A stretch of 64,000 bases of DNA. Origin: Bacteroidota bacterium (GTDB lineage: Bacteria > Bacteroidota > Bacteroidia > Bacteroidales > FEN-979). Numbering within the stretch: the stretch's first letter is position 1; every line of letters begins with the position of its first letter. The position numbers were made by a program, and so were the translations under genes. The notes under the pieces were generated by a model. That model had not been told where the DNA came from, did no database searches, and saw nothing but the letters and a program-made list of their open reading frames with translations. Location of the stretch: NCBI GenBank assembly GCA_037137455.1, contig JBAXKG010000007.1, forward strand, positions 12,036 to 76,035. The letters are read 5' to 3'. Shown in pieces: positions 19,317 to 41,344 of the stretch.

Positions 19317-20612
19317 TCATTCCCAATCAAGGCTTTCAAGTATCGATATTAATTCAAATGGGCGGTAGGGTTTTGCAATATATTCGTCCATTCCGGCAGC
19401 TAAACATTTTTCACGGTCAGTAACCATCACATGGGCTGTTACCGCCACGATCTTTATTCTATTTGACCCTGCTGTTTCCAATTCACGGATCACACGCGTT
19501 GCTTCAATCCCATCCATAATTGGCATAGCGATATCCATAAGGATCAGATCGTAATGAGAATTTTTAAATTTTTCAACCGCAATTTTTCCGTTTTCAGCAA
19601 GTTCAACGTGATGACCGGCACGCACGAGGCTTGTCATTGCAAATTTTTGATTTAAAAGATTGTCTTCAACAAGCAATATGGAAAGTGGTTTCAGTACTTT
19701 TTTTTGAGATATTCTTCCGAGCCGCTCATTGGCAAGCAGTTCATCATCTCCCTTTTCTAATAACAATGAAAACCAAAAGTTCGATCCATGACCTTTTTCG
19801 CTTTGAACACCTATTTTCCCATTCATCATACGAGTGAGATTTTTGGAGATCGAAAGTCCTAAACCTGTTCCTTCAAATTGTTTGACCAACGGATTTTCCA
19901 ATTGGGCAAAATCATTAAACAAGCTTACTTGTTCTTCAGGAGAGATGCCTATTCCGGTATCAATAACTTCAAATTTCAATAATACGGATTCTGGATTCAA
20001 ATTGGCACGATCTTTTAGATCGTCAGGAATAAATTCTCTGTTTTTATCGAAACTATTACTTTTAAGATCTATGGTTTCAACAGCTACCAAAACATGTCCT
20101 TGATTTGTGAATTTTATTGCATTATTAGTGAGGTTGATCAGTATCTGCTTTAATCTCACCGGATCACCAATTACACAAGTTGGAACCGTTGATTGGATCT
20201 TTGAAAAAAGATCAATACCTTTTCCTTTTGCTTTAATTGATAAAAGTTTTATAACCTGATAAATCTCTTCCTGCAGGAAGAATGGCTTCTGGTCTAATTT
20301 CAACTGGCCTGCTTCAATTTTCGACAAATCCAGGATATCATTGATAATGGTGAGCAGGTTTACACTGGAAATATTAATAATCTCCAAAAAATCGCGTTGC
20401 TCACTGGTAAGTTCTGTTTGGTTTAAAACATTATAAATGCCAATGATACTGTTCATTGGGGTCCTGATTTCGTGGCTCATATTTGCCAGAAACATGGTTT
20501 TTGATCTGTTGGCATTTTCTGCTTCCTGTTTTGCTTTTATAAGGGCATTGCGTACTTTTTCATGCTCTTCGATAGTAACAAAACCTTCTTTATTCCCTTG
20601 CAAGTCTTCCAT
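19317..20612 (-). CDS. cytoplasmic hybrid histidine kinase (HisKA-HATPase_c-REC) with no recognisable sensor domain
   Basis: H-box [13 protein letters not shown]1 and G2 boxes are NNAIKFT, DTGIGI and GTGLGLSI. The receiver reads [10 protein letters not shown]...[13 protein letters not shown]...AKPY. No TM helix, and only about 35 aa precede the H-box. Confidence 0.9.
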
Positions 20613-20613
20613 T

Positions 20614-25739: not shown

Positions 25740-25741
25740 CG

Positions 25742-27565
25742 TTATTTCCTTTCCCAGGCTTTAGTTTCTGCATTATATTGCTTTAACAGTTTGGCAGGGT
25801 TACCACCAACGATGGAGTATGGTGGTACGCTTTTCGTAACGATGCTGCCTGCAGCTATTACTGAATGTTTTCCGATTCTCACTCCGGCAACAATAACTGC
25901 ATTTGCGCCAATCCAAACCTCGTCCTCGACCACTATTTCAGCCATGGTTGTTTTTTGTTTGCTTGGAGGAATATCAATATCTTCATATCCATGATTTAAC
26001 CCTGAAAGCACAATATTTTGGGCAAACATAATATCATTCCCAATTGTTACCGGCCCAATTATCACGTTGCTCATTCCGATTCGTGTACGGTCGCCAATAA
26101 TTACATGGCCGACGCCATTATTTATCGTTGAAAAATCCTCAATGGTCGAATCATTTCCGATTCTGAAATCATTAAATGGGAAAACATCCATCCTCGTTCG
26201 CCGGCGTATTGTTGAATGCTTTCCCTTTTTATGCTTGATTGGGTTTATAAACAACTTTACCCAAAGCCTGGGGCGTGCCTGATTATTTGGAATGAGCATC
26301 CAGAGCAGGAATTTTTTAATTCTGGGATTTGACTTGAGTTTTGAAAGTAATGACCCTGAATTTTGCTCTTTAGGTTGGGGAGAGCTGCTTTTAACGAGTT
26401 CCATTGCTGAGTATATTTCATTGGCATTGGCTTCCCAGGTATGCCCGCGGGCAAATTTCTCACGCGATTTGGCTAGTTCAGGCGTGTTTTCTTTCATAGC
26501 ACGTTCGACCAGCGACAAATATTCTTCCTTTGTATTTGCCAGGTAGGTGAAGTCTTCAAATACCTGCATTGCCTCTGTCCTGGTTGCAACAACAGGCTTA
26601 CCCATTGAAAGGTATTCATCAATTTTCCGGGGATAATTCCCGATTGTTACTTCATTAAGAATCTGCGGGTTGATAGCAACGTCAAATGTAGATAAGTACA
26701 AGGGCAATTCTGACGGTTTTTTACTTCCAAGAAAATGGACGTTGCTCAACTGATGCAGTTCGCTATTTTTAAAGTTATCATCTTCTGGTCCAACAAGAAC
26801 GATTGACCATTCGGGGCGCTGTTTTGCAAGGTGAGTAATAATTTCAATATCCAACCGAAGGGTAAAAAGAGCACCGATATAGCCAATAACAGGCTTTTTA
26901 ATTTTCTGAATATCTTCAGGAACTGATTCGATCAGGTTCATATCGAAGGCACTCACATCGCAGCCCTGGCCTACATAATAGGATTGGGGGTTGAACTTTT
27001 TGAGGTACTTTGCCAGATAAACAGAATTGGCAACGGCGAGATCGGATTTACGGATTAGTTCAGCCTCAATTCGTATACCCTGAGTCTTCCACCAATCAAC
27101 AGCAATCATATTATCGCGTGAATAATAGATATACATATCCGGTCTTAAATATTCTTTCAGATAAAAACTTCTGAACATATCGCTGTCATTGAAAATAATG
27201 AAATTTTTGAATCCGAGTTTCTCAATGGCCCATGAAATTTGCTTTGCGAATCGCTTGTTATTTATTTTGTTAAAGAAATCGAATAAAGAATTATAAGGAA
27301 TCTGACTAATTGATTCAAGCATAGTTCTTGGATAAAAACTCCATAAATTATCCTGAATTTTTATCAGATTTTCCAGTTCCCCTTTGAGCATTTTTTTCCT
27401 TTTATGCAGTTTCGGGTCGTTTCGCTCTCTGTAAGCTGTTAACCGGTCCATAGGGTAGTTCACGTAAAGAACCCGATTATGTTTTGCAAATTCAAGAGCA
27501 AGATTGATGCAGTTGCTTCCAATGTCACTATCAAAAGCCTGTAACCCGGTTATTACAATATCCAT
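25742..27565 (-). CDS. fusion protein: GT1/GT4-type glycosyltransferase plus C-terminal left-handed beta-helix (hexapeptide) O-acetyltransferase
   Basis: The ATG at 27565 (MDIVITG...) avoids overlap with the upstream gene. The GT-B C-terminal part reads GKPVVATRTEAM. About 170 C-terminal residues carry hexapeptide repeats (IGDRTRIGMSNVIIGPVTIGNDIMFAQNIVL...VWIGANAVIVAGVRIGKHSVIAAGSIV...GGNPAK). Confidence 0.8.
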   Translation of the reverse strand: MDIVITGLQAFDSDIGSNCINLALEFAKHNRVLYVNYPMDRLTAYRERNDPKLHKRKKMLKGELENLIKIQDNLWSFYPRTMLESISQIPYNSLFDFFNKINNKRFAKQISWAIEKLGFKNFIIFNDSDMFRSFYLKEYLRPDMYIYYSRDNMIAVDWWKTQGIRIEAELIRKSDLAVANSVYLAKYLKKFNPQSYYVGQGCDVSAFDMNLIESVPEDIQKIKKPVIGYIGALFTLRLDIEIITHLAKQRPEWSIVLVGPEDDNFKNSELHQLSNVHFLGSKKPSELPLYLSTFDVAINPQILNEVTIGNYPRKIDEYLSMGKPVVATRTEAMQVFEDFTYLANTKEEYLSLVERAMKENTPELAKSREKFARGHTWEANANEIYSAMELVKSSSPQPKEQNSGSLLSKLKSNPRIKKFLLWMLIPNNQARPRLWVKLFINPIKHKKGKHSTIRRRTRMDVFPFNDFRIGNDSTIEDFSTINNGVGHVIIGDRTRIGMSNVIIGPVTIGNDIMFAQNIVLSGLNHGYEDIDIPPSKQKTTMAEIVVEDEVWIGANAVIVAGVRIGKHSVIAAGSIVTKSVPPYSIVGGNPAKLLKQYNAETKAWERK

Positions 27566-27587
27566 ATTATCTGATTTTTCAATTATA

Positions 27588-28724
27588 TCATTTTTTTTCA
27601 ACTTCCAGATAAAGGTTGAGCACGTTTTCAGCCATAGTTTTCCATGAAAACCTGCGTGCGTTCTCAAATCCTTTCAAAATAAGTGTGTCGCAAAGAGATT
27701 TGTCTGAAAGAAGTCTTTTCATGGAAGCAGTTATCTCTTCGGGTTTAAATGGGTCAATGAATAATGCCGCCTCTCCGCCGACCTCTGGCATGGAACTCGT
27801 GTTAGATGTTATTACAGGAATCCCACAGGCCATTGCCTCCAGCATGGGGATGCCAAAACTTTCGCGAAGTGAAGGATAGAGGAAAATCGTACTCAGTGAA
27901 TACAATGCAGGCAATTCATTATTGGGCACATAACCTGTGAGTTTAATGTAATCATTCAGGGCCGTATCACCTATTTCGCTGATGATTTTATTTAGCTCAT
28001 TCCGATCAAAATCAAGCATGACCAGGGGAATTTTTTCTTCTGAGGAATTGAGAAAAAGTGAAAGCGCTTTAAGTACTCCGGGCGTATTCTTTTTAGGATC
28101 GGTGTTGCCAAAGAAGAAGAAAAATTTATCTGGCAGATTATACTTGGTTTTTATCTGGCTCAGATATTCTTTATCGGAAATTGGTTTGAAATGTTCACTA
28201 ACACCATTATATATTGCTTTCAGCTTTTGATCATCCACATGAAAAAAATCACCAATACGTTTTTTTTCAAACTCGGAAACAGTAATGATCCTGGCGCTTT
28301 TTCGAACAACTTGTGGAACGACAAATCTTCGGTACATGTTGCCGAATTTCTGATAAGGAGTGAATCCTTTTTTCAAAACACTCAGGCTTTCCATGTAAAT
28401 TATGTCGTGTAATGTGATAATAAGTGGAACAGAAGTGAAAACAGGAGCTGTATTGCTGGTACAATGCAGGATATCGCAGTTGGCTTTTTTTGCGGCAGCA
28501 GGCAGGTTAATCTGCTCCCAAATGGGATAAGGCGCCTCGGCCACCTCCACAATATTGAAATTTGGAGTACTGTCGAGACAACGGTCGACATCATTTTTCA
28601 CAAAAACGAAAAATTCATTTGTTTTATCAATTTTCTGCAGGTTTCTGATTAATTCCAGGGCAACCATATCCATTCCATGTTTTTTTTGACGGAAAAGCCG
28701 TTGACCTTCAATTCCAATTTTCAT
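27588..28724 (-). CDS. glycosyltransferase family 1 (GT4-type)
   Basis: RESFGIPMLEAMACGIPVITSNTSSMPEVGGEAALFIDP is the canonical GT-B E-x7-E region. Confidence 0.9.
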   Translation of the reverse strand: MKIGIEGQRLFRQKKHGMDMVALELIRNLQKIDKTNEFFVFVKNDVDRCLDSTPNFNIVEVAEAPYPIWEQINLPAAAKKANCDILHCTSNTAPVFTSVPLIITLHDIIYMESLSVLKKGFTPYQKFGNMYRRFVVPQVVRKSARIITVSEFEKKRIGDFFHVDDQKLKAIYNGVSEHFKPISDKEYLSQIKTKYNLPDKFFFFFGNTDPKKNTPGVLKALSLFLNSSEEKIPLVMLDFDRNELNKIISEIGDTALNDYIKLTGYVPNNELPALYSLSTIFLYPSLRESFGIPMLEAMACGIPVITSNTSSMPEVGGEAALFIDPFKPEEITASMKRLLSDKSLCDTLILKGFENARRFSWKTMAENVLNLYLEVEKK

Positions 28725-29926
28725 CTTCCTGGTTTTGTTTGGTTACCATTACTATAACTGTGTTCTGTATGAATGAATTCTTTGTTGCCACCTCTTAATT
28801 TTAAAAGTATGAGTATCATCAGGAAGAAAACTTTCGGAAACGAAATCAGTGCTTTGAGGGTTTTGATGGTATAGAATTTTTTTGGAATTGATATGAGCAG
28901 GGTAAAAATAATCATGATTAAAATACCTAACCAGCAATATTGAAAATTCGGATTTGGTACAAAAAGGTTCAGAATGTTTAGTATAAAAAGTACCCCAAAA
29001 AGCATAGCGCGCGGAGGTAAGGAGAATTGCAGGGTTTTATCAAAGTAATCAAAGTTACGATGGGCGAGTAAATGCCATATCGAAACAATAAAATCCCTTC
29101 CAAAAAAGTAAAATTGTGCGTACATCCAACGTTTACGTTGTTTGTAAAAAACATGTGCATTCTGAACTTTTTCGTCCAATACGTAAGCATCCTGAAGATA
29201 TTCAATTTTCACTTTTTCGCGAAGAATGATAAGTTCAAGTTCTTTGTCAAAGCCCCCGATCGCACTTAGTTGCGGGATATATTTCCTGAACAGGAGTGCA
29301 TCGAAAACCATCGCTGAGCCTATCAGTGCAGATGAGATGCCAAGAGCACGATGACCACTCCTGAAAATATTATTATTGACCTCTTCGCTTATTGCATCGA
29401 GGAGGGCAAATGAAGTATTTGTGTTTTTGGCAATCCTGTGGCATTGAATTACTTTAAAGGAAGATTCAAAAGCCATATTTATTTTAGATAAAAAATGATC
29501 TTCCATAATGTTATCGGCATCAAGCACGAGAACCAGATCAGTTTGATCGGGGAGATAATTGAGTGAAATTTGCAGTGATTTAGCTTTGGTGCTGAATTCA
29601 AAATGTGCTTCAACAAGTTCTATTGGTAATAATTTCAAGGCTTGCAAAGTTTCTGTTTGAAAGGAATCAGCTACTACGATCACACGAAAAGAATCAGTTG
29701 GATAATCCTGATTCAGCGCCGACATAACTACATCAACAATCACGGGATCTTCTTTAAATGCCGGAATGACAATACTTATATGACGATTCCGCGATATTGG
29801 AAAAACATTATCCTTCTTATTAAAAAATCCTGCAAAAGCGTAGATCAATAAATAGAATGTTGCTCCACCAAAATATGCCAATATCAGAATCTGTAATATA
29901 TCCAAAATTGATTGAAATGAATTCAT
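28721..29926 (-). CDS. membrane GT2 with processive-synthase-type Q-x-x-R-W motif (paralogue A)
   Basis: SIVIPAFKED..., LDADNIM, the motif YKQRKRWMYAQ, and flanking TM helices. By eye it is roughly 45-50% identical to the next gene. Confidence 0.8.
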   Translation of the reverse strand: MNSFQSILDILQILILAYFGGATFYLLIYAFAGFFNKKDNVFPISRNRHISIVIPAFKEDPVIVDVVMSALNQDYPTDSFRVIVVADSFQTETLQALKLLPIELVEAHFEFSTKAKSLQISLNYLPDQTDLVLVLDADNIMEDHFLSKINMAFESSFKVIQCHRIAKNTNTSFALLDAISEEVNNNIFRSGHRALGISSALIGSAMVFDALLFRKYIPQLSAIGGFDKELELIILREKVKIEYLQDAYVLDEKVQNAHVFYKQRKRWMYAQFYFFGRDFIVSIWHLLAHRNFDYFDKTLQFSLPPRAMLFGVLFILNILNLFVPNPNFQYCWLGILIMIIFTLLISIPKKFYTIKTLKALISFPKVFFLMILILLKLRGGNKEFIHTEHSYSNGNQTKPGR

Positions 29927-31137
29927 GTCCGGTTATTTATATTTTGAACTTTTCCTTTTTGAACCGTATGTACTGTATGACCGAAACCACGTTTGGCTTT
30001 AAAAACCCGGAATAGGGAGCCCAGCATAAAAATGAACCCTTTCGGAAGAACCAGTAGCGCTTTAAATGTCTGCCAGTTGAAGTAAGGTAAAGGGACAGAG
30101 ATTAACAAAGTGATGTTGCAAAGAACCGTGAGCGCTATCCAGCAGATTGAAATAATTAATGGATTAAGGAAAAGCGAGACAATCGAAATGATGAAAAGAA
30201 ATCCCAACAGAAAAATTCTTGGAGGTAAAAACTGTTGAAATACCTTATCAAAATAATCAATATTCCCATTTACAAAAAGCTCTTTTAAACTTGAGCCGAA
30301 ATATTGCCTTGCATAGATAAATTGGTTGGCCAGCCATCTTGTTCGCTGCACCATAAATACATGTGATTTTTGGACTTTCTCATCGTAAACAAATGCCTCT
30401 TCACAATATTCTATGCATTGCCCATCCCGTAAAAGTTTCATTTCTAATTCTTTATCTTCACCAAACGAATCGATCGTTGCCATGTATTTTTTAAACATTG
30501 GATAATCGAATGCCATACCACTTCCTATCAGGGCAGAAGAAAGCCCAATAATGCGATGCCCTTTGCGGAAAATGTGGTTATTAATCTCTTCGCTTACTGA
30601 ATCTAAAACTGCGAAAGATGTATTGCGGTTTTTAGCTTTCCGGTGGCCTTGTATGGCGACGAATCCGCTGGAAAGCGCTATGTTCATTTTAGTAATGAAA
30701 TCTCTGGCCATGATATTGTCTGCATCCAGGATGATCACTGCATCATAAATATCAGGCAAAACACTCATTGTTTTATTTAATGCCCGTGATTTTGAACTTA
30801 TTTCAAATGATACTTCAACAACCTTAATGGGTAATTTGCGAAGTTCATCGAGGGTGGTTTGCTGAAAGGAATCTGCGATTATGATTACTTCATACCGGGA
30901 AGGCGGATAATCCTGATCCAGCGCTTGTTTTGCAACTTCAATAATAACGGCATCTTCCTTGTATCCAGGGATTAGCACCGCGAACTTTCGTAAACGGTCA
31001 TCTTTCCTTGAACGTGGGTGGTATCGAAAAAGTCCTGAAATTGAGAAAATTGAGAAATATAAAGCGGCAACAAAAAAATATAAAAATACTACCGCTTCCA
31101 GAACAAGGAAAAAAAGATACAGATAATACTTTGCCAT
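29923..31137 (-). CDS. membrane GT2 with processive-synthase-type Q-x-x-R-W motif (paralogue B)
   Basis: AVLIPGYKED..., LDADNIM, the motif MVQRTRWLANQ, and TM helices at both ends. The ATG at 31137 is preferred over the TTG at 31182. Confidence 0.8.
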   Translation of the reverse strand: MAKYYLYLFFLVLEAVVFLYFFVAALYFSIFSISGLFRYHPRSRKDDRLRKFAVLIPGYKEDAVIIEVAKQALDQDYPPSRYEVIIIADSFQQTTLDELRKLPIKVVEVSFEISSKSRALNKTMSVLPDIYDAVIILDADNIMARDFITKMNIALSSGFVAIQGHRKAKNRNTSFAVLDSVSEEINNHIFRKGHRIIGLSSALIGSGMAFDYPMFKKYMATIDSFGEDKELEMKLLRDGQCIEYCEEAFVYDEKVQKSHVFMVQRTRWLANQFIYARQYFGSSLKELFVNGNIDYFDKVFQQFLPPRIFLLGFLFIISIVSLFLNPLIISICWIALTVLCNITLLISVPLPYFNWQTFKALLVLPKGFIFMLGSLFRVFKAKRGFGHTVHTVQKGKVQNINNRT

Positions 31138-31219
31138 AAGATAATTTATTTTTAAAAAATCCGCAGAATGCCTCTGAAGCAAAGTTATATATAAATCAAA
31201 CCGAATACAAAATCAGTTT

Positions 31220-32143
31220 CTATAAAAAGGGATTATCATGTATTTCGGCGCTGATTGATCTTTTCAGATGCCAACCGATTGCCCTGACATATGCATAAAA
31301 TAATGACAATTTGCCTTTTGCAAGAAATTTAAGGGCATTTCGGGGAATTGCAATAAAAAGTTGGTAAAGCAAGCCAATGATGAAATCGGTACCAAATACA
31401 TTTCTGCGCATGAACACAATCCGGTTGCGGTTGAGATAGTATATTTTCATCGGGCTTAATTTTCCCACTGATATTGATTCTTTATGGTATACAAGTGAAT
31501 TGTGGACATAATATATTTTATACCCGGCATTTTTAATTCGGTAACTCCAATCGGCCTCTTCGTAGTAGAGAAAAAAAATGTATGACATCAAACCGATCTC
31601 TTTAATAACCCGCATAGGCACCATCATTGCAGCGCCGTGTGCATATGAAGTTTCATAATCACGGTCATACTGGCCTTTATCTTTCTCCTTATAGCCTATT
31701 GAAAAATTGCGCATTGTACGATGGTTAATAGGTGTATAGCCGGCGTACTGGATAATTTTGCGATCGTAATAAAAATGAAGTTTGGAGCTGACAGCGCCAA
31801 TGGTTTTATCAGATTCCAATTTGTCAACAAGTGGTTCAAGGAATCCTTTTTCAACAATCGTATCATTATTCAACAGCAGCACGTAATCACCTCGCGCCCG
31901 CATTATGCCCTGGTTATTGCCTCCGGCGAAACCATAATTGATGATACTCTCGTAGAGTATCACAGATGGAAAACGTTGCTTAATAATTTTCGGATTATCG
32001 GAAGGGGAGGCATTGTCGATGATGATAATTTCAATATTCGGATAAGAAATTTTAGTCAGAGATTCAATAAATTCACAAGTATCCTCTGATCCGTTGTAGT
32101 TGACCGAGACAATAGAAACGAGAGGATAGTGTTTTCGTGCCAT
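31220..32143 (-). CDS. soluble glycosyltransferase family 2 (tandem paralogue 1)
   Basis: VSIVSVNYNGSEDT...IIIDNASPSD...GFAGGNNQG...LLLNNDT...FLYYEEADW. Confidence 0.85.
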   Translation of the reverse strand: MARKHYPLVSIVSVNYNGSEDTCEFIESLTKISYPNIEIIIIDNASPSDNPKIIKQRFPSVILYESIINYGFAGGNNQGIMRARGDYVLLLNNDTIVEKGFLEPLVDKLESDKTIGAVSSKLHFYYDRKIIQYAGYTPINHRTMRNFSIGYKEKDKGQYDRDYETSYAHGAAMMVPMRVIKEIGLMSYIFFLYYEEADWSYRIKNAGYKIYYVHNSLVYHKESISVGKLSPMKIYYLNRNRIVFMRRNVFGTDFIIGLLYQLFIAIPRNALKFLAKGKLSLFYAYVRAIGWHLKRSISAEIHDNPFL

Positions 32144-32176
32144 ACAGACTGGTACTATTTGTTTCGGTAATCATTT

Positions 32177-33112
32177 TCAGTCAAGGCGAGGGCTTTTATG
32201 CAATTCCGGGTTAAATAAATTCTTTAAATGCCAGAACATGGCATTGGCATATGCAAAACAAAGTTTAAATTGTCCCTTCAAAAGAAAAACAGACAGGTTT
32301 TTGGGTATAGCAATTATTAATTGGTACAGCACAGATGCGAGGGCTTTCCAACCATGAACATTTCGACGCATGTAAAGCAATCTGTTACGATTCAGATAAA
32401 AAATTTTCAACTGGCTCATTGTTCCGGTAGTGATTGAATCTTTATGAAATACCAATGAGTTGTGAACGTAAAAGATCTTGTATTTTGCATCCTTGATACG
32501 TTGCATCCAATCCATCTCTTCATAGTATAGGAAAAAAATGTCGGCCATTAACCCTACCTCCTTCAACACCTTCATTGGGATGACCATAGCTGCCCCAAAC
32601 GCGTAATTTGTCTGAGAATCTGAATCATATTGCCCACTGTCAATTTCGTTAAACCCAATCCCACTATTACGTATCGTTATAGGGTTGATAGGTGTAAACC
32701 CGGCATACTGGATAGTATCACGATGGAAAAAATATCTGATTTTCGGGCTTACAACACCAATATCAGGGTTGTTCTCCAACTTGCTGATGAGTGGTTCCAG
32801 GAATCCGGGATCAACTTCTGTATCGTTATTTATCAGTAAAAGGTATTTCCCTTTGGCTACTCTGATGCCAATGTTGTTACCTCCTGCAAATCCAAGGTTT
32901 TGATCACTTTTAATTAAAGTGATATAGGGGTATGTTTCAATAATTATATCAGGATTTTTCGAAGGCGATGCGTTATCAACTACAATAATTTCAATGGAAG
33001 GATAGGTAATAAAGGATAGAGATTTAATCAGATCACAGGTAATTTCAGGCTGATCCCAATTTACCGTAATGATGGAGACCAATGGAAAAGTGGAAAGTGA
33101 TTTCCCGGTCAT
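32177..33112 (-). CDS. soluble glycosyltransferase family 2 (tandem paralogue 2)
   Basis: VSIITVNWDQPEIT...IVVDNASPSK...GFAGGNNIG...LLINNDT...FLYYEEMDW. It is collinear with the neighbouring 307-aa gene. Confidence 0.85.
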   Translation of the reverse strand: MTGKSLSTFPLVSIITVNWDQPEITCDLIKSLSFITYPSIEIIVVDNASPSKNPDIIIETYPYITLIKSDQNLGFAGGNNIGIRVAKGKYLLLINNDTEVDPGFLEPLISKLENNPDIGVVSPKIRYFFHRDTIQYAGFTPINPITIRNSGIGFNEIDSGQYDSDSQTNYAFGAAMVIPMKVLKEVGLMADIFFLYYEEMDWMQRIKDAKYKIFYVHNSLVFHKDSITTGTMSQLKIFYLNRNRLLYMRRNVHGWKALASVLYQLIIAIPKNLSVFLLKGQFKLCFAYANAMFWHLKNLFNPELHKSPRLD

Positions 33113-33156
33113 AATGTCTGATATTTAATCATGTAATTTATATGACAACCTTTTAT

Positions 33157-33303
33157 TTATGAAAATCCTTGTTCATTTAAACGTTTTTGTTCCTCTTCTT
33201 TTGCTTTGGATTCAGCTTTTCTATGTTGATATAATGCCGTAATGAATCCAATGGGAGTGAAAAGGATTAGACCAATGACCATATGAACAACAACGCCTTC
33301 CAT
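33157..33303 (-). CDS. unannotated 48-aa single-pass membrane protein
   Basis: Translated manually: MEGVVVHMVIGLILFTPIGFITALYQHRKAESKAKEEEQKRLNEQGFS. It has one hydrophobic helix and a charged tail. The ATG overlaps the Wzy-like stop (TAATG). It is below the 60-aa track cutoff. Confidence 0.45.
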   Translation of the reverse strand: MEGVVVHMVIGLILFTPIGFITALYQHRKAESKAKEEEQKRLNEQGFS

Positions 33304-34796
33304 TATATTTTTTTATCTGATAATTCAGGTTGCATTCCACTTGACTTTTCGGCTAATTGTTTCTCCAATTCCGGAGCAATGAACACATAGGCCATACTTG
33401 CATATATCAAAACACCGGTTGGGAACTGCCCAAGGACTGAATTTCCGTAACTAGCCACTATTATACCGAAAATCCCGGATAAGAGCGCTCCAATTTTAAC
33501 GAATATTTCAGGATTTTTTAATTCATACATACAAATAAAAGATCCCTTTCCAATGATAAATCCAAGAACAAACAGGTGCAAGTACAATCCGACAATACCG
33601 TTTTCAGCCCAAATCATAACAAACCAGCTATCCGTGGCTGTATTTGCAAGGAAGGTATCGGGTGTATATTGTAATGCCCTGTTTCCGGCATGGCCAATAC
33701 CTCCTCCGAAAGGTCTGGTTTTCAAATATTCCTCAATCAGCTTTTGATTGGCAATACGGACCAGGTACGAGGCATCTTCTTCAGGTCTGAATGCCGTTCG
33801 CATACGATAAATCTGATAATTGGTATTGCCAATATATGTATACCGGAAGAATGAATAAAAAATCAGCAATACTATGCCCCCAATAAAAATTACCTTTATA
33901 TTCTTACGTAATATCATGTAAAGAAATAGTCCTCCCAAAGGAACAAAAATAGCGCCCCGGGTACCGGAGCTTGACATTCCATAAAAACCGGCAATCATAA
34001 CAACTATCCAGAAAATACGTTTCTTGATATTTTTTTCATTCATCATCAGGATAGAGGCAATTAATCCAATTTGTCCCTGGGCTGCTCCAAACTGTCCGGC
34101 ATCAGTATAAAACGAAAAAGCCCGAAGGTTACCAAGGAGAACATGGGTAACGGCTCCACCCTCATCAAGCCATCTTTGTTCCCATTGATCGGGCCCGATA
34201 TTTATTTGCATCCATGCTTTAATTGAGGCAAGAATAGAGAATATACCCCAAATCATCAGAAATTTATCGAGATGGCGTGGTGTACTGTACAGCATAAAAA
34301 CCAAGGGTATAGTCAGGATCATATAAAATCCTATTCCGCGAAATGCAGAGAACCAAGCGGCTTTACTAATGGCTTCAGGATTAAAAAATTCCAGACATAT
34401 ATATGCAAACCAAATAGCCGATAATAAGATCAGGTCTAATTTTAAGGATTTGAGAGGAAATTTTTTATCAAAATAATGGAAGAACACAGCTATGTAAATC
34501 ACGATTAGAGTGATGTCCATTACATATCCCAGCCTAATAGGCAAATACCGGGTCAACCCCATCAGGATGAAGTTGATAATAAATGCAAAGGTGAGTCCGA
34601 TTTCAGGTTTTATTATCAACCGGTTAAGGGCATAAACCATAAATGGTAAAACCATCAATGCAGAAGCCACGGTTAACCCGCCTTTTGCAATAACATACCC
34701 GATTCCAACAGCCATTACTAGCATGGATCCGATCAAGAATGGATCTTTAAGGCGTTCGGCGCCTGTTTTGGAGAGAAATGGGTTAGCCTGATTCAC
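33303..34796 (-). CDS. wzy: O-antigen ligase/Wzy-family polysaccharide polymerase
   Basis: At least 10 predicted TM helices with a large loop (NLRAFSFYTDAGQFGAAQG) typical of Wzy_C proteins. The track ORF (to 35021) overlaps wzx by 217 nt. The GTG at 34796 lies 8 nt after the wzx stop. Confidence 0.7.
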   Translation of the reverse strand: MNQANPFLSKTGAERLKDPFLIGSMLVMAVGIGYVIAKGGLTVASALMVLPFMVYALNRLIIKPEIGLTFAFIINFILMGLTRYLPIRLGYVMDITLIVIYIAVFFHYFDKKFPLKSLKLDLILLSAIWFAYICLEFFNPEAISKAAWFSAFRGIGFYMILTIPLVFMLYSTPRHLDKFLMIWGIFSILASIKAWMQINIGPDQWEQRWLDEGGAVTHVLLGNLRAFSFYTDAGQFGAAQGQIGLIASILMMNEKNIKKRIFWIVVMIAGFYGMSSSGTRGAIFVPLGGLFLYMILRKNIKVIFIGGIVLLIFYSFFRYTYIGNTNYQIYRMRTAFRPEEDASYLVRIANQKLIEEYLKTRPFGGGIGHAGNRALQYTPDTFLANTATDSWFVMIWAENGIVGLYLHLFVLGFIIGKGSFICMYELKNPEIFVKIGALLSGIFGIIVASYGNSVLGQFPTGVLIYASMAYVFIAPELEKQLAEKSSGMQPELSDKKI

Positions 34797-34804
34797 ACTT
34801 AAAA

Positions 34805-36223
34805 TTATGAAAAATATTTGAATTTCGATTTTTTCACTAAAAGTCGAATTGCATTTTCTTTGTAAAAAATATATCCTTTCCTGAATATTTCCCAAAAGGA
34901 GATTTCGATTTCCTGTCGCAAGAACCTGTAACCAACAAAAATACCGATTAGGGAAAATACGATGGATGCCAGGGCAACAAATAACAGCAAGGTGGTTACG
35001 GGCAGTTCGGGAAACAGCCAATGCATTCCGAATACAGCAAATATATCGCCAAGGATATTGGCGGTAGTCATATACAAGACTTTCTGAAAGTTTCGCTGTG
35101 GTTTATTTAAACTGTCCAGGGCGACTCCGGTAAAACGGTCAAGTGGCAATAAAGTACAATATATGATAAACACTACCATGACGTATGAAAGTGCGGTTAG
35201 CGATTCGATATATTTACTGCCTCCGATAATCAGAATAAAATATTTATTCAGGAAAAGACTAATTATGGCTATACCAATAAACAGGAAAACGACTATTCCC
35301 GTATAGGAATAAAAAATATCACGGAAACGATTCTGGTCATTATCAAGGCTAGCTTTTGACAATTTGGGAAAAGCGGTAGTCGCAAAGCTTATAAGAGGAA
35401 TTTCGATGAGTTCGACATATTTTAAAGGTATTGCGTATAATGCAACACCAATCGGACCGCAAAACGCGCTAAAAGAGATAATAAAGCTGTCAGCTCCTTT
35501 CAGAAGGCTGCTGCCGACTTTGGTGCCCATTGAAAACTGGCCATATCTCAGTACCTCTTTCATTTTTGCAAATGATATATATTTGATAAATTCAATTCCG
35601 GTCCATTTTTTTACAAGGCAGAATGCTGAGGTTGCAAAATTTGTAAGTAAGTAAATAATTACGACCACAGTAATATCAATTTTAAAAAGGAAGTATGAGA
35701 TGAAAATAATTATCAGAAAAGAGCAGAGGTTAAAAAAACGGATCCAGAAAATTTTCTTAAAATTCAGTTCAGCCTGAAAGATTGTCCAAGAGTAATTCCA
35801 CGGCAGGTTAATCAATGCCAATACCGGATACCAATAACAAAAAACATCATAACCGCTGTTATTCAGGGCTTCGGGGATAATGAATGTTAAACTCCACAGG
35901 ATAACTGTAAGCGGGATCAGAATCAAGAGTCCGATAGCCCAGCTGGAACCGAGGTAGTACTTTCTGTCGGACACGGTAGGAGATGATAAAAATCTCACCA
36001 GGGCCTCTTTACTTAGTCCAAAACGCATCATATCAATTAGCGAGGCAGGAGCGGTAAACAAAACCCATTTACCGAAATCCGGAATTGATAGCATACGCAT
36101 CAGGATCATAAATGACAAAAGACCCATAATGGCTGTAGAGAAATTAGCCGCTAAGGATAGAAAGTTCAGATCATTGACTAATTTTGAAAGAGTCTTTTTC
36201 AATCTAGGGAGTATTCTTTTCAT
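34805..36223 (-). CDS. wzx: polysaccharide/oligosaccharide flippase (Wzx, MOP superfamily)
   Basis: 472 aa, about 12-14 TM helices, and a flippase-like N-terminus (LSLAANFSTAIMGLLSFMILMRML). It sits next to the polymerase gene. Confidence 0.8.
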   Translation of the reverse strand: MKRILPRLKKTLSKLVNDLNFLSLAANFSTAIMGLLSFMILMRMLSIPDFGKWVLFTAPASLIDMMRFGLSKEALVRFLSSPTVSDRKYYLGSSWAIGLLILIPLTVILWSLTFIIPEALNNSGYDVFCYWYPVLALINLPWNYSWTIFQAELNFKKIFWIRFFNLCSFLIIIFISYFLFKIDITVVVIIYLLTNFATSAFCLVKKWTGIEFIKYISFAKMKEVLRYGQFSMGTKVGSSLLKGADSFIISFSAFCGPIGVALYAIPLKYVELIEIPLISFATTAFPKLSKASLDNDQNRFRDIFYSYTGIVVFLFIGIAIISLFLNKYFILIIGGSKYIESLTALSYVMVVFIIYCTLLPLDRFTGVALDSLNKPQRNFQKVLYMTTANILGDIFAVFGMHWLFPELPVTTLLLFVALASIVFSLIGIFVGYRFLRQEIEISFWEIFRKGYIFYKENAIRLLVKKSKFKYFS

Positions 36224-38885
36224 GAAACTGGAAAGTCAAAATCTGTTTCATTGTTCTTCTGAATTTCGATCTATGGCGGGGAAGTTCTCCAAATATGGCA
36301 TCCAGGTATAGCAATTCAACCCCGTTAAGAACGATTTGAGTAGCATGCTTGAATAGTGGAATAAAAGCATTCAAGGCTGAATTATCAGCATCGGTCCATG
36401 AACGGTTAGCCCTGGTTATGAGCAGGGAAAGATCAAATTGCCGGATGAATTCCAGTGGGTATGGATTATTAATCAATGAAGGGATTTCGACAAAAATGTA
36501 GTCAAAGCTTTCCAAATCAATATGTTCATACCCAACCATTAATGATAACAGGTCTTTTGTTTCAAAGAAATTCTCTTTTATCGAGTACTGAATTTCATCA
36601 TCGGTAGGGGGTATCAGTTCTCCTCCCGTCATGTAGAAGGGGTTTCCTTCAATTTCTTTGATATAGTTCAAAAACAGTACGTTTTCACCAAATGATTTAA
36701 GTTTCCGGCTAAGTTCTCTTCCTATACTTGTCTTTCCTTCTGCATCACGTGTGCTGAAGAGCAGGATCATCACTGGTTTTATATGTTGGTCCACATTTGC
36801 CCTGACTAAGGTCAGTTTAACGTTTTGGGCCAGAATTTCAACAAGCCTTGGAATAATGAAGCCAATATCAACAGCATATATTTGCTTAATTATCTGTGGA
36901 TAGACGCCAGCGACTTTAAGTTTGATAAATCGTTCGGCCCTTTCCGGTGTTTTAATGGTTGTGTCGAAGAACTCCATTGCAAGCAGAATGGCTACAACCA
37001 GCACAAAGCCGACAATTGCAGCAAGGAGTACAAGCATAAGCGCTCTTGAACGAATAGGGTTCAACGGGTAGTATGGCGCATCAACAACCTTTATATTGGT
37101 TCTTAATTCATCATCCTGTTGACGGAGTTTAGCGAGGTTTAAATCGTGCAGGAGTTGTAAAAACTCACTTTCATTAACGCCGATCAGCCGTTCCATCCTT
37201 TTCAATTCAGCGCCAAGAGGGGCGAAAACTTCGTAAACATGTTGAAAATATTTTTTCCGCTCGGCCAGAACCCTGAATGCTGCTTTACTCTCTTCGTAAG
37301 CAATGACATTTTTAAGCCAGGCATCCAACAACTCTTTTGTAGGCAGGCCTTCCACGCTGTTTGTCACCACGTAAAGACGGTCGATATTGTCTTTTATAGC
37401 TTGTTTTATATTCTCAACCCTCGATTTAAGACTGGCAAGTTGCAGTATTGTTGCAGAATCGTTTCCAAGATCGATCTCTATATTTGCAATTTGCATTGTT
37501 GTTTCAGACAATTCGTTACGTAAACGAAGTATAGCGCTGGTATTTAGCGAAAGTTTGGCATGTGTTTCCAGTTTTTTTTCAATGATTTTTATCGCGGCAT
37601 CAGACGAGGCAAATGCAATCTGTTTGTTTTGAAGTGAAACATCAAGTTCTTCCTTGGTTATTGCGATAATTTTTGTTTGTTCGTAGTAGTTGATAATATT
37701 ATTTCGTTCATTAAAGTCCAGCAATTCAGTCTCGGCTTTTTTCAACCTGCGTGCAGCATTTTCCAATTGACGTTTAAAATACTGGATAACGGCATCTGTT
37801 TGATTTTGCTTCAGGAGTTTATAATTAACTATAAAAATCCGCGTCAAAAAAATGAGGGTCTGCTGACATATACCCGGGTCGGGGTTTGTGTATGTAAGCT
37901 TTACAAGGTCACTGCTCTGGATCCGGAATATACCAACTGTTGAAAGGGCTTTAATACTGTAAAACCTGTCGTCCTGGGAACTCCACAATTTATATATAAA
38001 GTTGTAATCGTTTTGGTGTCCGTAGGCAAGCAGCAGCTTAACGATTCTGTCAAAAGCAGAGGAAGAGGTACTCTGGGTTCCCCGTGTCAAGGAGATCAGA
38101 GTATCGCTGCTGGTAAAAGCATCTGTTATACGTGAAATTGAGTCTCCAACGAGAGATTGGGAGGCAGGGGAGGGTTCCGGATCAAAGGTTTGCTCAGGTG
38201 TGGGCGAGGCTTCCGGTAAATCTTCTCTGTTATTGACTATTAATTTTTGTCCGACCGAAATGTCATTTCCTCTTAAATTATTATAAGACATTAATTCGTC
38301 AACACGTAACCCATTTGTTTTGGCAATAGAGTACATTGTTTCACCACTCCTGACAACATGAAATTTTTTCGTTCTGTTTAACCGGGAATGGGATTCAGAA
38401 TATTCTGCTATCTCATCCTGTAAATCGTTTTTGTAGAGTGATGTATCAAGGCTGGAAGATTGTTTTGTGGGAGGGCGGTAATATCGTTTATCGCTTCGTT
38501 TTGCTTTTTTTACGATATCAATTATATCGGATGGAACTTTTGCAAGCAGCTCATCATAATTTTCTTTGGAAATATATCGTGGATCGTAATGATCCAGTAG
38601 AAGATGTTGTGCAAGCAAACTAACAGAAACTTCTTCAAGGGTTTGCCTTGATTTGATAAGGTTGATCAGATTGTCGAACAAAGCGGCGGTTACCATATAA
38701 TCGACATTGGCTTGCTGTTGCACAGAATAGCCAGATGTAACGCCGGTATATATTGTGGTTTCAGAACTGTATGACCATTGACTTTTCCTTGTAAGAATGA
38801 ATACAACAGTAGCAATAATCAAAGGGACCAGAATCAATAATATAATGTGTCGCTGAAGTAATTTTATGAAATAAATAACTTTCAT
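36204..38885 (-). CDS. polysaccharide co-polymerase (Wzz/GumC-type) with a LysM domain in the periplasmic loop and a degenerate BY-kinase-like C-terminal domain
   Basis: TM1 is at residues 12-32 and TM2 at ALMLVLLAAIVGFVLVVAILLAM, with a long coiled-coil periplasmic region between them. LysM reads HVVRSGETMYSIAKTNGLRVDELMSYNNLRGNDISVGQKLIV. The C-terminal FSTRDAEGKTS is Walker-A-like, and there is no terminal Tyr cluster. Confidence 0.8.
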   Translation of the reverse strand: MKVIYFIKLLQRHIILLILVPLIIATVVFILTRKSQWSYSSETTIYTGVTSGYSVQQQANVDYMVTAALFDNLINLIKSRQTLEEVSVSLLAQHLLLDHYDPRYISKENYDELLAKVPSDIIDIVKKAKRSDKRYYRPPTKQSSSLDTSLYKNDLQDEIAEYSESHSRLNRTKKFHVVRSGETMYSIAKTNGLRVDELMSYNNLRGNDISVGQKLIVNNREDLPEASPTPEQTFDPEPSPASQSLVGDSISRITDAFTSSDTLISLTRGTQSTSSSAFDRIVKLLLAYGHQNDYNFIYKLWSSQDDRFYSIKALSTVGIFRIQSSDLVKLTYTNPDPGICQQTLIFLTRIFIVNYKLLKQNQTDAVIQYFKRQLENAARRLKKAETELLDFNERNNIINYYEQTKIIAITKEELDVSLQNKQIAFASSDAAIKIIEKKLETHAKLSLNTSAILRLRNELSETTMQIANIEIDLGNDSATILQLASLKSRVENIKQAIKDNIDRLYVVTNSVEGLPTKELLDAWLKNVIAYEESKAAFRVLAERKKYFQHVYEVFAPLGAELKRMERLIGVNESEFLQLLHDLNLAKLRQQDDELRTNIKVVDAPYYPLNPIRSRALMLVLLAAIVGFVLVVAILLAMEFFDTTIKTPERAERFIKLKVAGVYPQIIKQIYAVDIGFIIPRLVEILAQNVKLTLVRANVDQHIKPVMILLFSTRDAEGKTSIGRELSRKLKSFGENVLFLNYIKEIEGNPFYMTGGELIPPTDDEIQYSIKENFFETKDLLSLMVGYEHIDLESFDYIFVEIPSLINNPYPLEFIRQFDLSLLITRANRSWTDADNSALNAFIPLFKHATQIVLNGVELLYLDAIFGELPRHRSKFRRTMKQILTFQFHEKNTP

Positions 38886-39685
38886 TAATCTATTTTATTT
38901 ATTACATTAAACTTGATACCGGCAAACTCCTGAAGGAGCATGTAGGCATTGTAGAAGGCGAACCGGGATTCTTCAAAGTCAGTAACTGCTTTACGGTACA
39001 TTTCATTAATATATGCTAACTCATACAAGGTTATTTGCCCGTTTAAAAATTCTTTATCTCCCATTTCCTTTTGCAGCGCCTGGGCATATATGTTTTCATT
39101 TGCAATTTTCAGAATACGCTGGTTAACAATTAACTGGTTATATTGTACAATAATTAATTTTCGCAATTCAATGATTTGATTGTCCCTGATAGCCATCGAT
39201 TTTTCAACCTCTTTCGTTGCGGTTTTAATTCTGTTTTTCCTGTCCCAAAAATCATCCATAGGTAAACGAAGGCTTACGCTAACCAAGGCCCGATCACTAT
39301 TTTGGGTGGATTGCATAATATTTCCTATTATTACATTGTCACTAGATGAACCAGAATTATCTGTTCCGGAAAACCAATAATCCTTTTGTAACAATCCATC
39401 GATGTAGAAATTTTGCATCCATTCCCTTTTTGCTGTTTTAATTTTATATTTCCAAATGGCAATATCTGCATCCTGTGATCTCAGAAGCGGGGAGTTTACA
39501 ATGGCAGAGTCAATCAGGTCTTCGAGGGGAGGAATGCGTAATGTGATATCATCCACAAACGGGTTGAAGGTCACTGATGAATCCTGGGCGTTTCCACTTT
39601 TAAAAAATCCTTGTCCAAAAAAAAACAGTGGAGAATTCAAGAGAAAAATAACCAAAAAAAGTGAGCATCTTGTTTTCATATCCAC
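38885..39685 (-). CDS. secreted 266-aa protein resembling a single TolC/OEP repeat (half-size outer-membrane factor)
   Basis: Signal peptide. LEDLIDSAIVNSPLLRSQDADIAIWKYKIKTAKREW plus later coiled-coil heptads resemble one OEP repeat. It occupies the slot upstream of the co-polymerase where Wza/OPX usually lies. Confidence 0.4.
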   Translation of the reverse strand: MDMKTRCSLFLVIFLLNSPLFFFGQGFFKSGNAQDSSVTFNPFVDDITLRIPPLEDLIDSAIVNSPLLRSQDADIAIWKYKIKTAKREWMQNFYIDGLLQKDYWFSGTDNSGSSSDNVIIGNIMQSTQNSDRALVSVSLRLPMDDFWDRKNRIKTATKEVEKSMAIRDNQIIELRKLIIVQYNQLIVNQRILKIANENIYAQALQKEMGDKEFLNGQITLYELAYINEMYRKAVTDFEESRFAFYNAYMLLQEFAGIKFNVINKID

Positions 39686-39706
39686 TTGTTGATTTTTATC
39701 GAATTC

Positions 39707-40939
39707 TTAGACATTTTCTTTTTGAATGAATATTGTAAACGTTCTAAAAATTAGCTTTATGTCATTCCAGAATGAATTGTGTTCTGCATAATAATTATCC
39801 AGCGCAAATCTTTCCTCTTCAGACATTGTTCCTTTTTTTCCACGTTTTTCCACTTGCCAGAGGCCGGTTAAGCCTGCAGCAGCTCTGAAACGGCGGCTCC
39901 ATTTCTTTTTTGTCAATGCTTCAGCTTCGTTAAGGGGCAGGGGACGGTTACCTACAATCGACATATCTCCTTTAATAATATTAAAGAGCTGGGGTAATTC
40001 ATCAATACTGGTCATCCGGATGAATTTTCCTACTTTGGTTATTCTTGGATCATCCTTGATTTTCAGAAAAGCTTTTTTTGCACTGCGCCGATTATTAGCA
40101 AGCCGTTCACAAATTTCTTCGCCATCGTAGTATACCATTGGCGAGCAGTTTTGGCCTGAAGGTAGCTTTGCGCATTCCGAACAGGTTACCTCAACCGATT
40201 CATTGATATACTGGTTCAAATGGGCAACGTCTTTGATGCGTGAGTCAGCATCGGGGTACATTGACCTGAACTTATAGAAATCAAATATCTTATAGTTAGA
40301 CCCAACCCGTTTGGCAATATAGTAAACCTTACCGCGCGACTCAACCAGGATGGCTATTACGGTAAGAAGCATAAATGGCGACAATATCAGCAGTGCAGAA
40401 AGAGCGACAACCATATCGAAAATACGCTTGGGTAAAGGTGTTTTATATGGAGTCATGTCTTCATCCTGTAGCGACATTGGCTTTGGAACGTATTCTGCCT
40501 TAAACTTATTCAGGAAAAGAATCCGGCTATAAATATTATTAATATTTATTTCTTTATGATAAAAGTCATCAATTCCCATGTTGAAAGCCTCCTGTTTGAT
40601 GCCATTATCCCGAAAAAAGGAGATAACGATAAAGGGAGTTTTCTGATAAACCTTGTTTAATTTGAGTTTCAAGTAAAACAATAAGCCATTTATTCCAGGA
40701 AGAATAAATTCGCAGATGATGGCATCAATCTTATGCTCTTCTTGATAAACCTTATCAAAACGAGTATCCTGGTCCAGGTCAAAAAGGTTAAATTGGTAAT
40801 TTGTTAACCAATAGAGTGCAGCCAGACCATTCGATATTTGTCTAACACTAAATAAATCGCTTTTATCGAACTGATCAATAGTTGGCTGATCATTTCCAAT
40901 ATAAAGGATTTTTAAAGGTGTGAAAGCATTTTCATCCAT
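39707..40939 (-). CDS. degenerate receiver domain fused to a bacterial sugar transferase (undecaprenyl-phosphate hexose-1-phosphate priming transferase)
   Basis: The C-terminal part reads PKRIFDMVVALSALLILSPFMLL...KFRSM...DDPRITKVGKFIRMTSIDELPQLFNIIKGDMSIVGNRPL, which are the WbaP/WecA-unrelated PGT signatures. The N-terminal ~140 aa has a CheY-like pattern with ND in place of DD, and E in place of the phospho-Asp (IDAIICEFILPG). Confidence 0.8.
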   Translation of the reverse strand: MDENAFTPLKILYIGNDQPTIDQFDKSDLFSVRQISNGLAALYWLTNYQFNLFDLDQDTRFDKVYQEEHKIDAIICEFILPGINGLLFYLKLKLNKVYQKTPFIVISFFRDNGIKQEAFNMGIDDFYHKEININNIYSRILFLNKFKAEYVPKPMSLQDEDMTPYKTPLPKRIFDMVVALSALLILSPFMLLTVIAILVESRGKVYYIAKRVGSNYKIFDFYKFRSMYPDADSRIKDVAHLNQYINESVEVTCSECAKLPSGQNCSPMVYYDGEEICERLANNRRSAKKAFLKIKDDPRITKVGKFIRMTSIDELPQLFNIIKGDMSIVGNRPLPLNEAEALTKKKWSRRFRAAAGLTGLWQVEKRGKKGTMSEEERFALDNYYAEHNSFWNDIKLIFRTFTIFIQKENV

Positions 40940-40945: not shown

Positions 40946-41344
40946 CTAATTACCTCTTCGTTGCGAGTACAATTCCTTGAATTCCAGGCGTCGTTTAATT
41001 CTTGCAATGAGTTCCTTGGGATTAAACGGTTTAAGAACATAATCATCGGCACCCATTTCAAAGCACCTGATCTTATCAGCGCTCTCTTCTTTACCTGAAA
41101 GCATTATCAATGGAATCTCGTCAAAGAAGCCGCTTTCCCGAATTCTTCGGATAAATTCAAAGCCATTTAAAACAGGCATTTCGACATCACAGATAATCAC
41201 ATCAGGGAGATTTCCGGTTTGCAAATAGAATAGTGCATCCATTCCGTTGCTGATCGAAGTAACTTCAAAATCCTTGTTAAACGTATTTTCGATTATAAAC
41301 CGGATACTTTTTTCATCATCAATAGCGAGTATCTTTTTCTTCAT
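40946..41344 (-). CDS. single-domain (CheY-like) response regulator
   Basis: ILAIDDEKS...DVIICDVEMPVLNG...LIMLSGK...VLKPF contains all canonical receiver residues. There is no output domain. Confidence 0.9.
   Translation of the reverse strand: MKKKILAIDDEKSIRFIIENTFNKDFEVTSISNGMDALFYLQTGNLPDVIICDVEMPVLNGFEFIRRIRESGFFDEIPLIMLSGKEESADKIRCFEMGADDYVLKPFNPKELIARIKRRLEFKELYSQRRGN

Follow-up and report, generated by a model that had tools for sequence, protein, structure and literature searches.

The 64,000-nucleotide stretch of contig JBAXKG010000007.1 analysed here (the window), from a Bacteroidota bacterium of the order Bacteroidales, encodes a 410-residue priming transferase made of three parts: a receiver-fold domain (residues 1-150), a membrane helix (residues 169-200) and a PglC-type phosphoglycosyl transferase that carries an insert. 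We find that the receiver fold is a pseudo-receiver almost throughout the family to which this protein belongs, that the fusion gene is strictly paired with a gene for a canonical response regulator, and that four cysteines in the insert are kept or lost as one unit. From the pairing and the pattern of conservation, and by analogy with EpsW and EpsZ of Myxococcus xanthus, we propose that the phosphorylatable regulator may dock on the pseudo-receiver and so gate the initiation of polysaccharide synthesis, a proposal that we judge about equally likely to be right or wrong.

The open reading frame is real, and its strand, on which an earlier reading of this DNA from its sequence alone (the sequence-only reading) was silent, is minus; the codon positions of key residues were checked against the DNA. 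The argument turns on the following features.

39707..40939, minus strand: priming transferase fusion gene (410 residues; PF02397 and PF00072), with its stop codon at 39707-39709
40490..40939, minus strand: pseudo-receiver domain, residues 1-150 (alignments, model, Foldseek)
40340..40435, minus strand: predicted membrane-associated helix, residues 169-200, with Lys171-Arg172 and Ser187-Pro188 (model)
39710..40339, minus strand: catalytic domain, residues 201-410 (Pfam, WbaP alignment, Foldseek)
40109..40255, minus strand: insert with Cys253, Cys256, Cys265 and Cys277, residues 229-277 (WbaP alignment, model)
40946..41344, minus strand: canonical single-domain response regulator of 132 residues (PF00072, 99.1 bits over profile positions 1-111)

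Both Pfam domains of the fusion score above their curated cut-offs. Bac_transf (PF02397) covers residues 171-405 (E 3.2e-58; 196.7 bits against a cut-off of 27), and Response_reg (PF00072) covers residues 67-140 (40.3 bits against 30.2), matching profile positions 39-110 only. The NCBIfam model TIGR03025, which is matched only in its C-terminal part and therefore at 231.5 bits, below the full-length cut-off of 295.55, groups the C-terminal half with exopolysaccharide polyprenyl glycosylphosphotransferases, WbaP and WcaJ. We modelled the protein with AlphaFold2 from an alignment of 150 family members (A2), at a mean predicted local distance difference test score (pLDDT) of 89.7; this model was used in place of an earlier one from a shallow alignment, in which the catalytic half was poor. 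It contains a complete (beta-alpha)5 domain at residues 9-149, a linker, the long helix 169-200 and the catalytic domain. A Foldseek search of the PDB with this model returns PglC first (8e37_A; E 3.5e-13, template-modelling score (TM) 0.79 on the target), then WbaP, and then many receiver domains with TM 0.75-0.83 on the target, such as 4qpj_C (0.83) and ArcA 1xhe (0.82). Because Pfam, model and structural matches agree, we regard the fusion and both of its folds as real, which bears out the sequence-only reading in its assignment of a receiver fold to the N-terminal region and of a bacterial sugar transferase to the catalytic domain. By homology and model, the gene product is predicted to initiate exopolysaccharide synthesis in a pathway of the Wzx/Wzy type. 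It is a monotopic phosphoglycosyl transferase of the small class with the PglC fold, and its N-terminus, which bears an aspartate-less pseudo-receiver, is predicted to be cytoplasmic.

The pseudo-receiver has the full alternation of a receiver, with β1 at 9-14, α1 at 18-26, β2 at 30-35, α2 at 38-45 and β3 at 73-77 in its first half, and α3 at 85-94, β4 at 103-107, α4 at 112-120, β5 at 125-128 and α5 at 133-149 in its second. When it is aligned by MAFFT and BLASTP to the regulator encoded beside it (28% identity, E 8e-14), the positions that serve phosphorylation in a receiver correspond as follows.

Acidic pair: Asp9-Asp10 in the regulator, Gly15-Asn16 in the fusion
Acceptor: Asp53 in the regulator, Glu77 in the fusion (codon 40709-40711), at the end of β3
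Thr/Ser position: Ser83 in the regulator, Ser107 in the fusion
Lys position: Lys105 in the regulator, Lys129 in the fusion

Since both the acidic pair and the acceptor Asp are lost, the pseudo-receiver cannot take a phosphoryl group. The sequence-only reading was right that the acceptor position is Glu and that the Lys is kept, though Lys129 is followed by Glu where the regulator has Pro. Its register was off by one at the acidic pair, which it gave as Asn-Asp: Asp17 lies beyond the pair and aligns to the Glu that comes after the pair in the regulator. The Ser that it listed among the signs of decay is indeed at the Thr position, but it marks no degeneracy, as the canonical neighbour also has Ser there. 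Judged by these residues, the domain is an aspartate-less receiver, or pseudo-receiver, as the portions of PMC4395418 and PMC12632262 consulted here define the term.

This character extends to the family. Of the 150 members in A2, 121 have Gly at the first acidic position, 67 keep the Ser/Thr and 36 the Lys, and only three combine all five catalytic receiver residues. The acceptor column holds Glu in 73 members, Asp in 38, Asn in 10 and other residues in 29; among 116 close homologues the counts are 103 Glu, seven Asp, three Asn and three Ser. A FastTree tree of the catalytic columns alone requires at least 52 changes of the acceptor state, a rough number because the tree is a quick one. Identity of the pseudo-receiver across the homologues of a further alignment (A1) ranges from 34 to 79%.

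The sequence-only reading had raised the possibility that Glu77 acts as a phosphomimic, so that the pseudo-receiver is held in an active-like state and the enzyme is permanently on. The counts above make Glu the commonest acceptor residue in both sets, Ser107 and Lys129 are present in this protein, and aspartate-less receivers in general carry Glu more often than any other replacement (26% in the consulted part of PMC4395418; also PMC12632262). We nevertheless find a locked-on enzyme improbable. The acceptor column is labile, the family does not conserve the Lys and Ser/Thr with which a phosphomimic would interact, an Asp-to-Glu change by itself often fails to activate a receiver (PMC4395418, PMC12632262), and an enzyme that was always on would not need the strictly conserved partner regulator described below.

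The best-kept columns of the pseudo-receiver in A2 lie in β5 and α5: G122 is kept in 109 members, D124 in 89, D125 in 118, R139 in 116 and L143 in 113 of 150. In OmpR/PhoB-type receivers, the Gly-x-Asp-Asp strand and the Arg of helix 5 are part of the α4-β5-α5 dimer face. The solved receiver that best matches the domain in sequence, ArlR, is of the OmpR/PhoB type, and three receivers of this type (KdpE, PmrA and ArlR) are among the top structural matches, alongside receivers of other types. The pseudo-receiver thus looks to have been selected as an interaction surface rather than as a phospho-acceptor. Between α2 and β3 it also has an extra loop (about residues 46-72), which is poorly ordered in the model. 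An acidic stretch of about 20 residues in this loop (about 47-66; window about 40742-40801, minus strand), modelled with low confidence, is absent from the neighbouring regulator; at its start, at least 90% of close homologues retain W44, T46 and F53.

The regulator carries Asp9-Asp10, Asp53, Ser83 and Lys105-Pro106, and its stop codon lies 6 nucleotides before the ATG of the fusion gene. Among 28 regulator orthologues (alignment A3), D10, D53, K105 and the Pro-Phe that follows K105 are invariant (28/28); identity among the 12 close orthologues, which fill the first 12 comparison rows of that alignment, is 80-98%. No terminator-like site was found within 38800-41600. The octamer TATATTTG stands about 25 nucleotides upstream of the regulator ATG (window about 41360-41370, minus strand) and fits the Bacteroidetes -7 promoter box (TAnnTTTG), which suggests that transcription of the unit starts with the regulator gene.

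We counted the pairing of regulator and fusion in 80 loci from species genomes and in two independent samples. In the species genomes, a CheY-like open reading frame lies directly upstream, on the same strand, of all 35 fusion-sized reading frames (340-435 residues). Ten other frames in these loci reach 340 residues or more. One (L034) is a read-through artefact at a contig edge, with a regulator-like frame present; the other nine are enzymes of 437-516 residues from records titled Myxococcales, Ignavibacteriales, Zixiibacteriota or Firmicutes-type, none of them Bacteroidales or Parabacteroides. Among the 35 shorter frames, only L023, a truncated copy of the fusion, has the regulator. The independent phylum sample adds four fusions out of four and metagenome contigs three out of three, so that the regulator lies directly upstream of 42 of the 42 intact fusion genes examined. 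Stand-alone relatives, which lack the N-terminal domain, have no regulator within their 1.5-kb flanks (0/4), even though two of them (L087 and L090) still adjoin the genes for an outer-membrane-efflux-like (OEP-like) and a Wzz-like protein that also accompany the fusion. These counts indicate that it is the pseudo-receiver which the regulator tracks, rather than the catalytic domain or the other genes of the module, and they uphold, at the level of genes, the link to the adjacent CheY-like regulator that the sequence-only reading had drawn. For the three A2 members whose receiver is fully canonical (P0194, P0198 and P0237), we sought the gene context to see whether a separate regulator is absent there. 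A search with P0194 of 401 genomes and of the metagenome contigs found no close orthologue; its best full-length matches, 41-50% identical, are all pseudo-receiver fusions with the upstream regulator.

An alternative is that the pseudo-receiver is a constitutive scaffold or dimerisation domain and that the regulator acts elsewhere: it might, for example, control the chain-length protein or a target encoded away from this locus, or draw off phosphate from the hybrid kinases. Loss of the catalytic receiver residues while the β5/α5 positions are kept would be expected of such a scaffold, and many pseudo-receivers dimerise without phosphorylation, according to the sections of PMC12632262 at hand. 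Against it, the regulator accompanies the pseudo-receiver at 42 of 42 fusion genes and is missing from the flanks of all four stand-alone enzymes, two of which retain the OEP-like and Wzz-like neighbours. We therefore consider a scaffold unlikely, if a serious contender.

In the docking model that we prefer, the phosphorylatable half of the switch would be the single-domain regulator encoded 6 nucleotides upstream, and its phosphate would probably come from the two kinases encoded at the end of the gene string.

19317..22026, minus strand: two hybrid histidine kinases (HisKA-HATPase-receiver) of 470 and 431 residues, at the end of the string; candidate phosphodonors

The phosphorylated regulator would then dock on the pseudo-receiver to form a receiver/pseudo-receiver heterodimer, and docking would alter the activity or the oligomeric state of the transferase post-translationally, as EpsW does with EpsZ in Myxococcus. 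Gene pairing and conservation are the basis of this model; that the two proteins bind, which way the control runs and which protein donates the phosphate are inferences, as is the metal of the insert. The proposed tie to kinases in the sequence-only reading also stands at the gene level: in three of three close relatives the first kinase has an orthologue (70, 70 and 57% identity) that is encoded on the strand of the fusion gene, 17-26 kb downstream of it, and in two of the three a second kinase-like frame stands beside this orthologue. Neither kinase has a recognisable sensor or membrane domain, and HisKA starts at residue 95 in the first and residue 38 in the second.

Several points weigh against this model. 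Gene adjacency alone is weak evidence of physical contact, and the regulator could act on another product of the string. The part played by the β5/α5 face as a dimer interface is carried over from OmpR/PhoB-family receivers. Parabacteroides goldsteinii has no such kinase orthologue, its best match being at 1.9e-49, and no Hpt domain is encoded on the contig, so that a relay from the hybrid kinases would need direct transfer from HisKA to the regulator. Finally, small monotopic transferases act as monomers, and the dimer-promoting mechanism of EpsW may not carry over to them (PMC12802240, in the portion available).

The closest functional parallel is the EpsW-EpsZ pair of M. xanthus, in which a phosphorylatable single-domain regulator is likewise encoded with a Wzx/Wzy pathway and post-translational control is likewise proposed at the first committed step. 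In the text of PMC12802240 to which we had recourse, phosphorylated EpsW stimulates the large transferase EpsZ post-translationally and is proposed to stabilise the EpsZ dimer. The enzymes themselves differ. EpsZ is of the large WbaP type and has a four-helix bundle together with a functionally uncharacterised cytoplasmic domain, whereas the fusion is of the small type and has its own pseudo-receiver as the likely docking site. With 410 residues, one membrane helix and an alignment to WbaP over the catalytic part only, the fusion falls outside the EpsZ type, defined as large WbaP-type enzymes with a cytoplasmic domain that lacks the beta-hairpin.

Other known systems share single elements with the fusion. 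A regulatory domain at the N-terminus of a small sugar transferase, served by a phosphorylation-dependent partner system, is also found in the cyanobacterial STAS-Bac_transf proteins (All4160, XssP), which are controlled through that domain; there, however, it is a STAS domain that partner-switching kinases phosphorylate on Ser, and it has no receiver fold (PMC13555669, as excerpted). Aspartate-less receivers such as ChxR and the plant pseudo-response regulators likewise have Glu at the acceptor, are degenerate at the second acidic residue and work without being phosphorylated on Asp, but they are mostly DNA-binding or clock proteins, whereas the output of the fusion is a membrane enzyme (PMC4395418, PMC12632262, both in extract). 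The first acidic position, Gly in the fusion, is generally retained in aspartate-less receivers (65%, from the same extract of PMC4395418).

The architecture class itself, a receiver followed by a small transferase, is already in print, and the protein is neither rare nor aberrant. O'Toole, Imperiali and Allen (PNAS 2021), whose work we know only through a paper that cites it, reportedly recovered receiver-Bac_transf fusions in a sequence-similarity network. Theirs is the same class, receiver then Bac_transf, and the text or supplements of that article may already contain part of the present findings. PMC12802240, which cites that article for such fusions of small monotopic transferases, remarks that the mechanism may differ there because the small enzymes act as monomers.

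The catalytic half of the fusion is close to that of PglC of Campylobacter (PDB 8e37, 8g1n), which it matches in sequence at an E of about 1e-27. The two share the catalytic fold, the Asp-Glu pair and an N-terminal membrane helix with Ser-Pro; PglC, unlike the fusion, has no N-terminal cytoplasmic domain. In A2, K171 and R172 of this helix are invariant and P188 is kept in at least 90% of the 150 members, and both S187 and P188 are kept in at least 90% of a set of 25 rows. PglC-type enzymes have one N-terminal re-entrant helix with a Ser-Pro break, so that both ends are cytoplasmic, and by analogy with PglC the helix 169-200 may be such a re-entrant helix. DSSP assigns it in the model as a single unbroken helix, with Ser187-Pro188 conserved. 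Asp313-Glu314 (39998-40003), aligned to the Asp-Glu of WbaP and present in 150 of the 150 A2 members, is presumably the catalytic pair, an assumption that again goes back to PglC. The motif expected after this pair in PglC-type enzymes is Pro-Arg-Pro. Where WbaP has this motif the fusion reads Asn331-Arg332-Pro333, and since N331 is found in 149 of 150 members we read Asn331 (39947-39949, minus strand), on the alignment, as a family-wide variant and not as a lesion. Asn331 may mark the family's substrate or mechanism.

The four-Cys insertion that the sequence-only reading placed in the catalytic domain is confirmed. Residues 229-271, 43 in all, are extra relative to WbaP, whose alignment resumes at the helix that begins with C277; C253, C256 and C265 fall within the insertion. 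Judged by the same sequence alignment, the solved relatives lack these 43 residues. Each of the four Cys is kept in at least 90% of 24 homologues. The model gives the insert helices at 232-241 and 254-258 and a hairpin at 268-271/274-277, with pLDDT of about 92-95 over residues 250-280. Among homologues the insert is 49-88% identical, against 62-88% for the first part of the catalytic domain and 71-94% for its C-terminal part, and 22 of the 150 A2 members are fusions without the long insert.

Across A2 the four cysteines are all present in 80 members, all absent in 64 and partly present in six; among the 126 members with the long insert, the corresponding numbers are 80, 40 and six. The all-or-none pattern argues that the four Cys work as one site. 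A metal site is plausible, as the ligands of a structural metal site would behave alike. Three stand-alone transferases of 241-271 residues (L087, L090 and L092) have the same long insert, with four or five Cys; they have no N-terminal domain, and no regulator lies in their 1.5-kb flanks. The insert is thus a module separate from the receiver. We considered whether insert and pseudo-receiver might be one coupled innovation and rejected this, as each occurs without the other. The insert would most likely be an independent structural module with a zinc site.

A redox- or iron-sulfur-based sensor that gates catalysis, in place of a structural zinc site, strikes us as improbable. The all-or-none behaviour of the Cys would suit a sensor too, as would the conservation of the insert, which is similar to that of the adjoining first part of the catalytic domain, if lower than that of the C-terminal part. 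But 40 of the 126 long inserts are Cys-free, so that catalysis does not need the Cys. The motif consists of a single CxxC knuckle and two lone Cys, with no match to a Pfam metal-cluster family at E up to 1. On the quick FastTree tree the Cys state changes at least 27 times, and such free gain and loss fits a structural site that packing can replace. For redox sensing as such, the present analysis offers nothing in favour. Even at E up to 1, residues 229-290 are covered by no family in Pfam, and no match to a described zinc finger or metal cluster was found; nor did the literature searched hold a relevant description of a zinc or cysteine insert in monotopic transferases.

Whereas the sequence-only reading had treated the protein as unusual, its homologues place it as a typical member of a large, uncharacterised Bacteroidota family. 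In a collection of 5.8 billion proteins, the best 120 matches are 54-100% identical and mostly 400-415 residues long, and 110 of them have both Pfam domains; those whose source is named are annotated "sugar transferase" and come from Bacteroidota or Bacteroidales metagenome-assembled genomes. A library clustered at 50% identity yields 1,506 representatives at E ≤ 1e-30. In all of the top 100, Bac_transf starts at residue 130-203, so that all have an N-terminal extension; Response_reg is detected in 41 of them at E ≤ 0.01 and in 18 at the curated cut-off. The nearest ESM Atlas cluster is from Bacteroidota, and of its 62 members 100% have Bac_transf and 39% Response_reg. In species genomes, the relatives that have an N-terminal domain are from Bacteroidales, Prolixibacteraceae, Parabacteroides, Tannerellaceae, Bacteroidaceae, Mucilaginibacter, Cyclobacteriaceae and Imperialibacter records.

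In even samples of the phylum, a family profile matches 12 of 151 genomes at E ≤ 1e-45, and a family member matches 25 of 401 genomes at E ≤ 1e-70. Thirteen of these 25 have frames of 400-458 residues and 12 have frames of 253-291 residues, the size of the catalytic domain alone, so that a fusion-sized relative is present in about 3% of the sampled genomes (13/401). Such fusions are not rare, the point on which the sequence-only reading had suggested a survey. No genome of the same order matched in the even samples. A search with the N-terminal 170 residues alone matched nine of 301 phylum genomes at E ≤ 1e-8 and is too insensitive to measure abundance, as all of these matches except that in the query's own genome score at most 46 bits and several lie in ordinary regulators. 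The source genome encodes two other priming transferases, on contigs 13 and 19. We found no description of this family, its partner regulator or its Cys insert in the literature searched, where the EpsW article was the only one to bring monotopic transferases and receivers together.

Downstream of the fusion, the same strand carries a string of polysaccharide genes that ends with the two kinases.

38885..39685, minus strand: OEP protein (outer-membrane-efflux, TolC-like), 266 residues (PF02321, E 4.5e-15), a conserved downstream partner
36204..38885, minus strand: Wzz/GNVR chain-length-determinant-like protein with a LysM domain, 893 residues (domain matches)
24558..36223, minus strand: rest of the Wzx/Wzy-type polysaccharide string, with a flippase, a Wzy-like polymerase, family 2 and family 4 glycosyltransferases and a glycosyltransferase-acyltransferase fusion

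Of the 45 loci whose transferase frame is at least 340 residues long, 32 have genes for both the OEP-like and the Wzz-like protein after the fusion gene; no Wza-type export protein was found among the reading frames of the string that were scanned. Seven glycosyltransferase genes lie downstream of the fusion on its strand, as does a methyltransferase gene. One product, of 641 residues (25742-27667, minus strand), joins a family 4 glycosyltransferase to a hexapeptide-repeat acyltransferase. The Wzy-like frame (33303-35021, with a TTG start) overlaps the flippase frame (34805-36223) by about 217 nucleotides, both on the minus strand, and the true Wzy-like start is probably further downstream. 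Inside the string, 22853-24547 (minus strand) encodes a right-handed beta-helix protein with a type IX secretion C-terminal sorting domain, which may be a secreted glycan-modifying or glycan-degrading enzyme.

Taking these elements together, we put forward more tentatively a split, two-part switch, which we regard as possible without expecting it. In one lineage of small priming transferases, the fused receiver would have given up its phosphorylation chemistry and become a dedicated docking site for a freely diffusing single-domain regulator, and a phospho-dependent heterodimer, in place of the usual receiver homodimer, would switch on exopolysaccharide synthesis at its first committed step. 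Adjoining the active site, the insert with its bound zinc would serve independently as a further element, either structural or regulatory.

At the priming step, undecaprenyl phosphate and nucleotide sugars, both scarce, are committed by the transferase to a single polymer. Post-translational control of this step is a largely open subject, in which one mechanism, that of EpsW on EpsZ, was published in 2025; the same source, in the part consulted, records that receiver domains on small enzymes exist and that their mode of action is unknown (PMC12802240). A near-universal pseudo-receiver with a constant partner regulator turns this question into a concrete hypothesis about two small soluble domains. 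The field of bacterial pseudo-receivers, whose activation mechanisms a 2025 review calls a mystery in its abstract (PMC12632262), gains a large and uniform family with an enzymatic read-out. If the split switch is true, it would be the first mechanism of receiver control for a small monotopic transferase, and it would suggest that pseudo-receivers in bacteria serve more generally as the partners to which true receivers bind.

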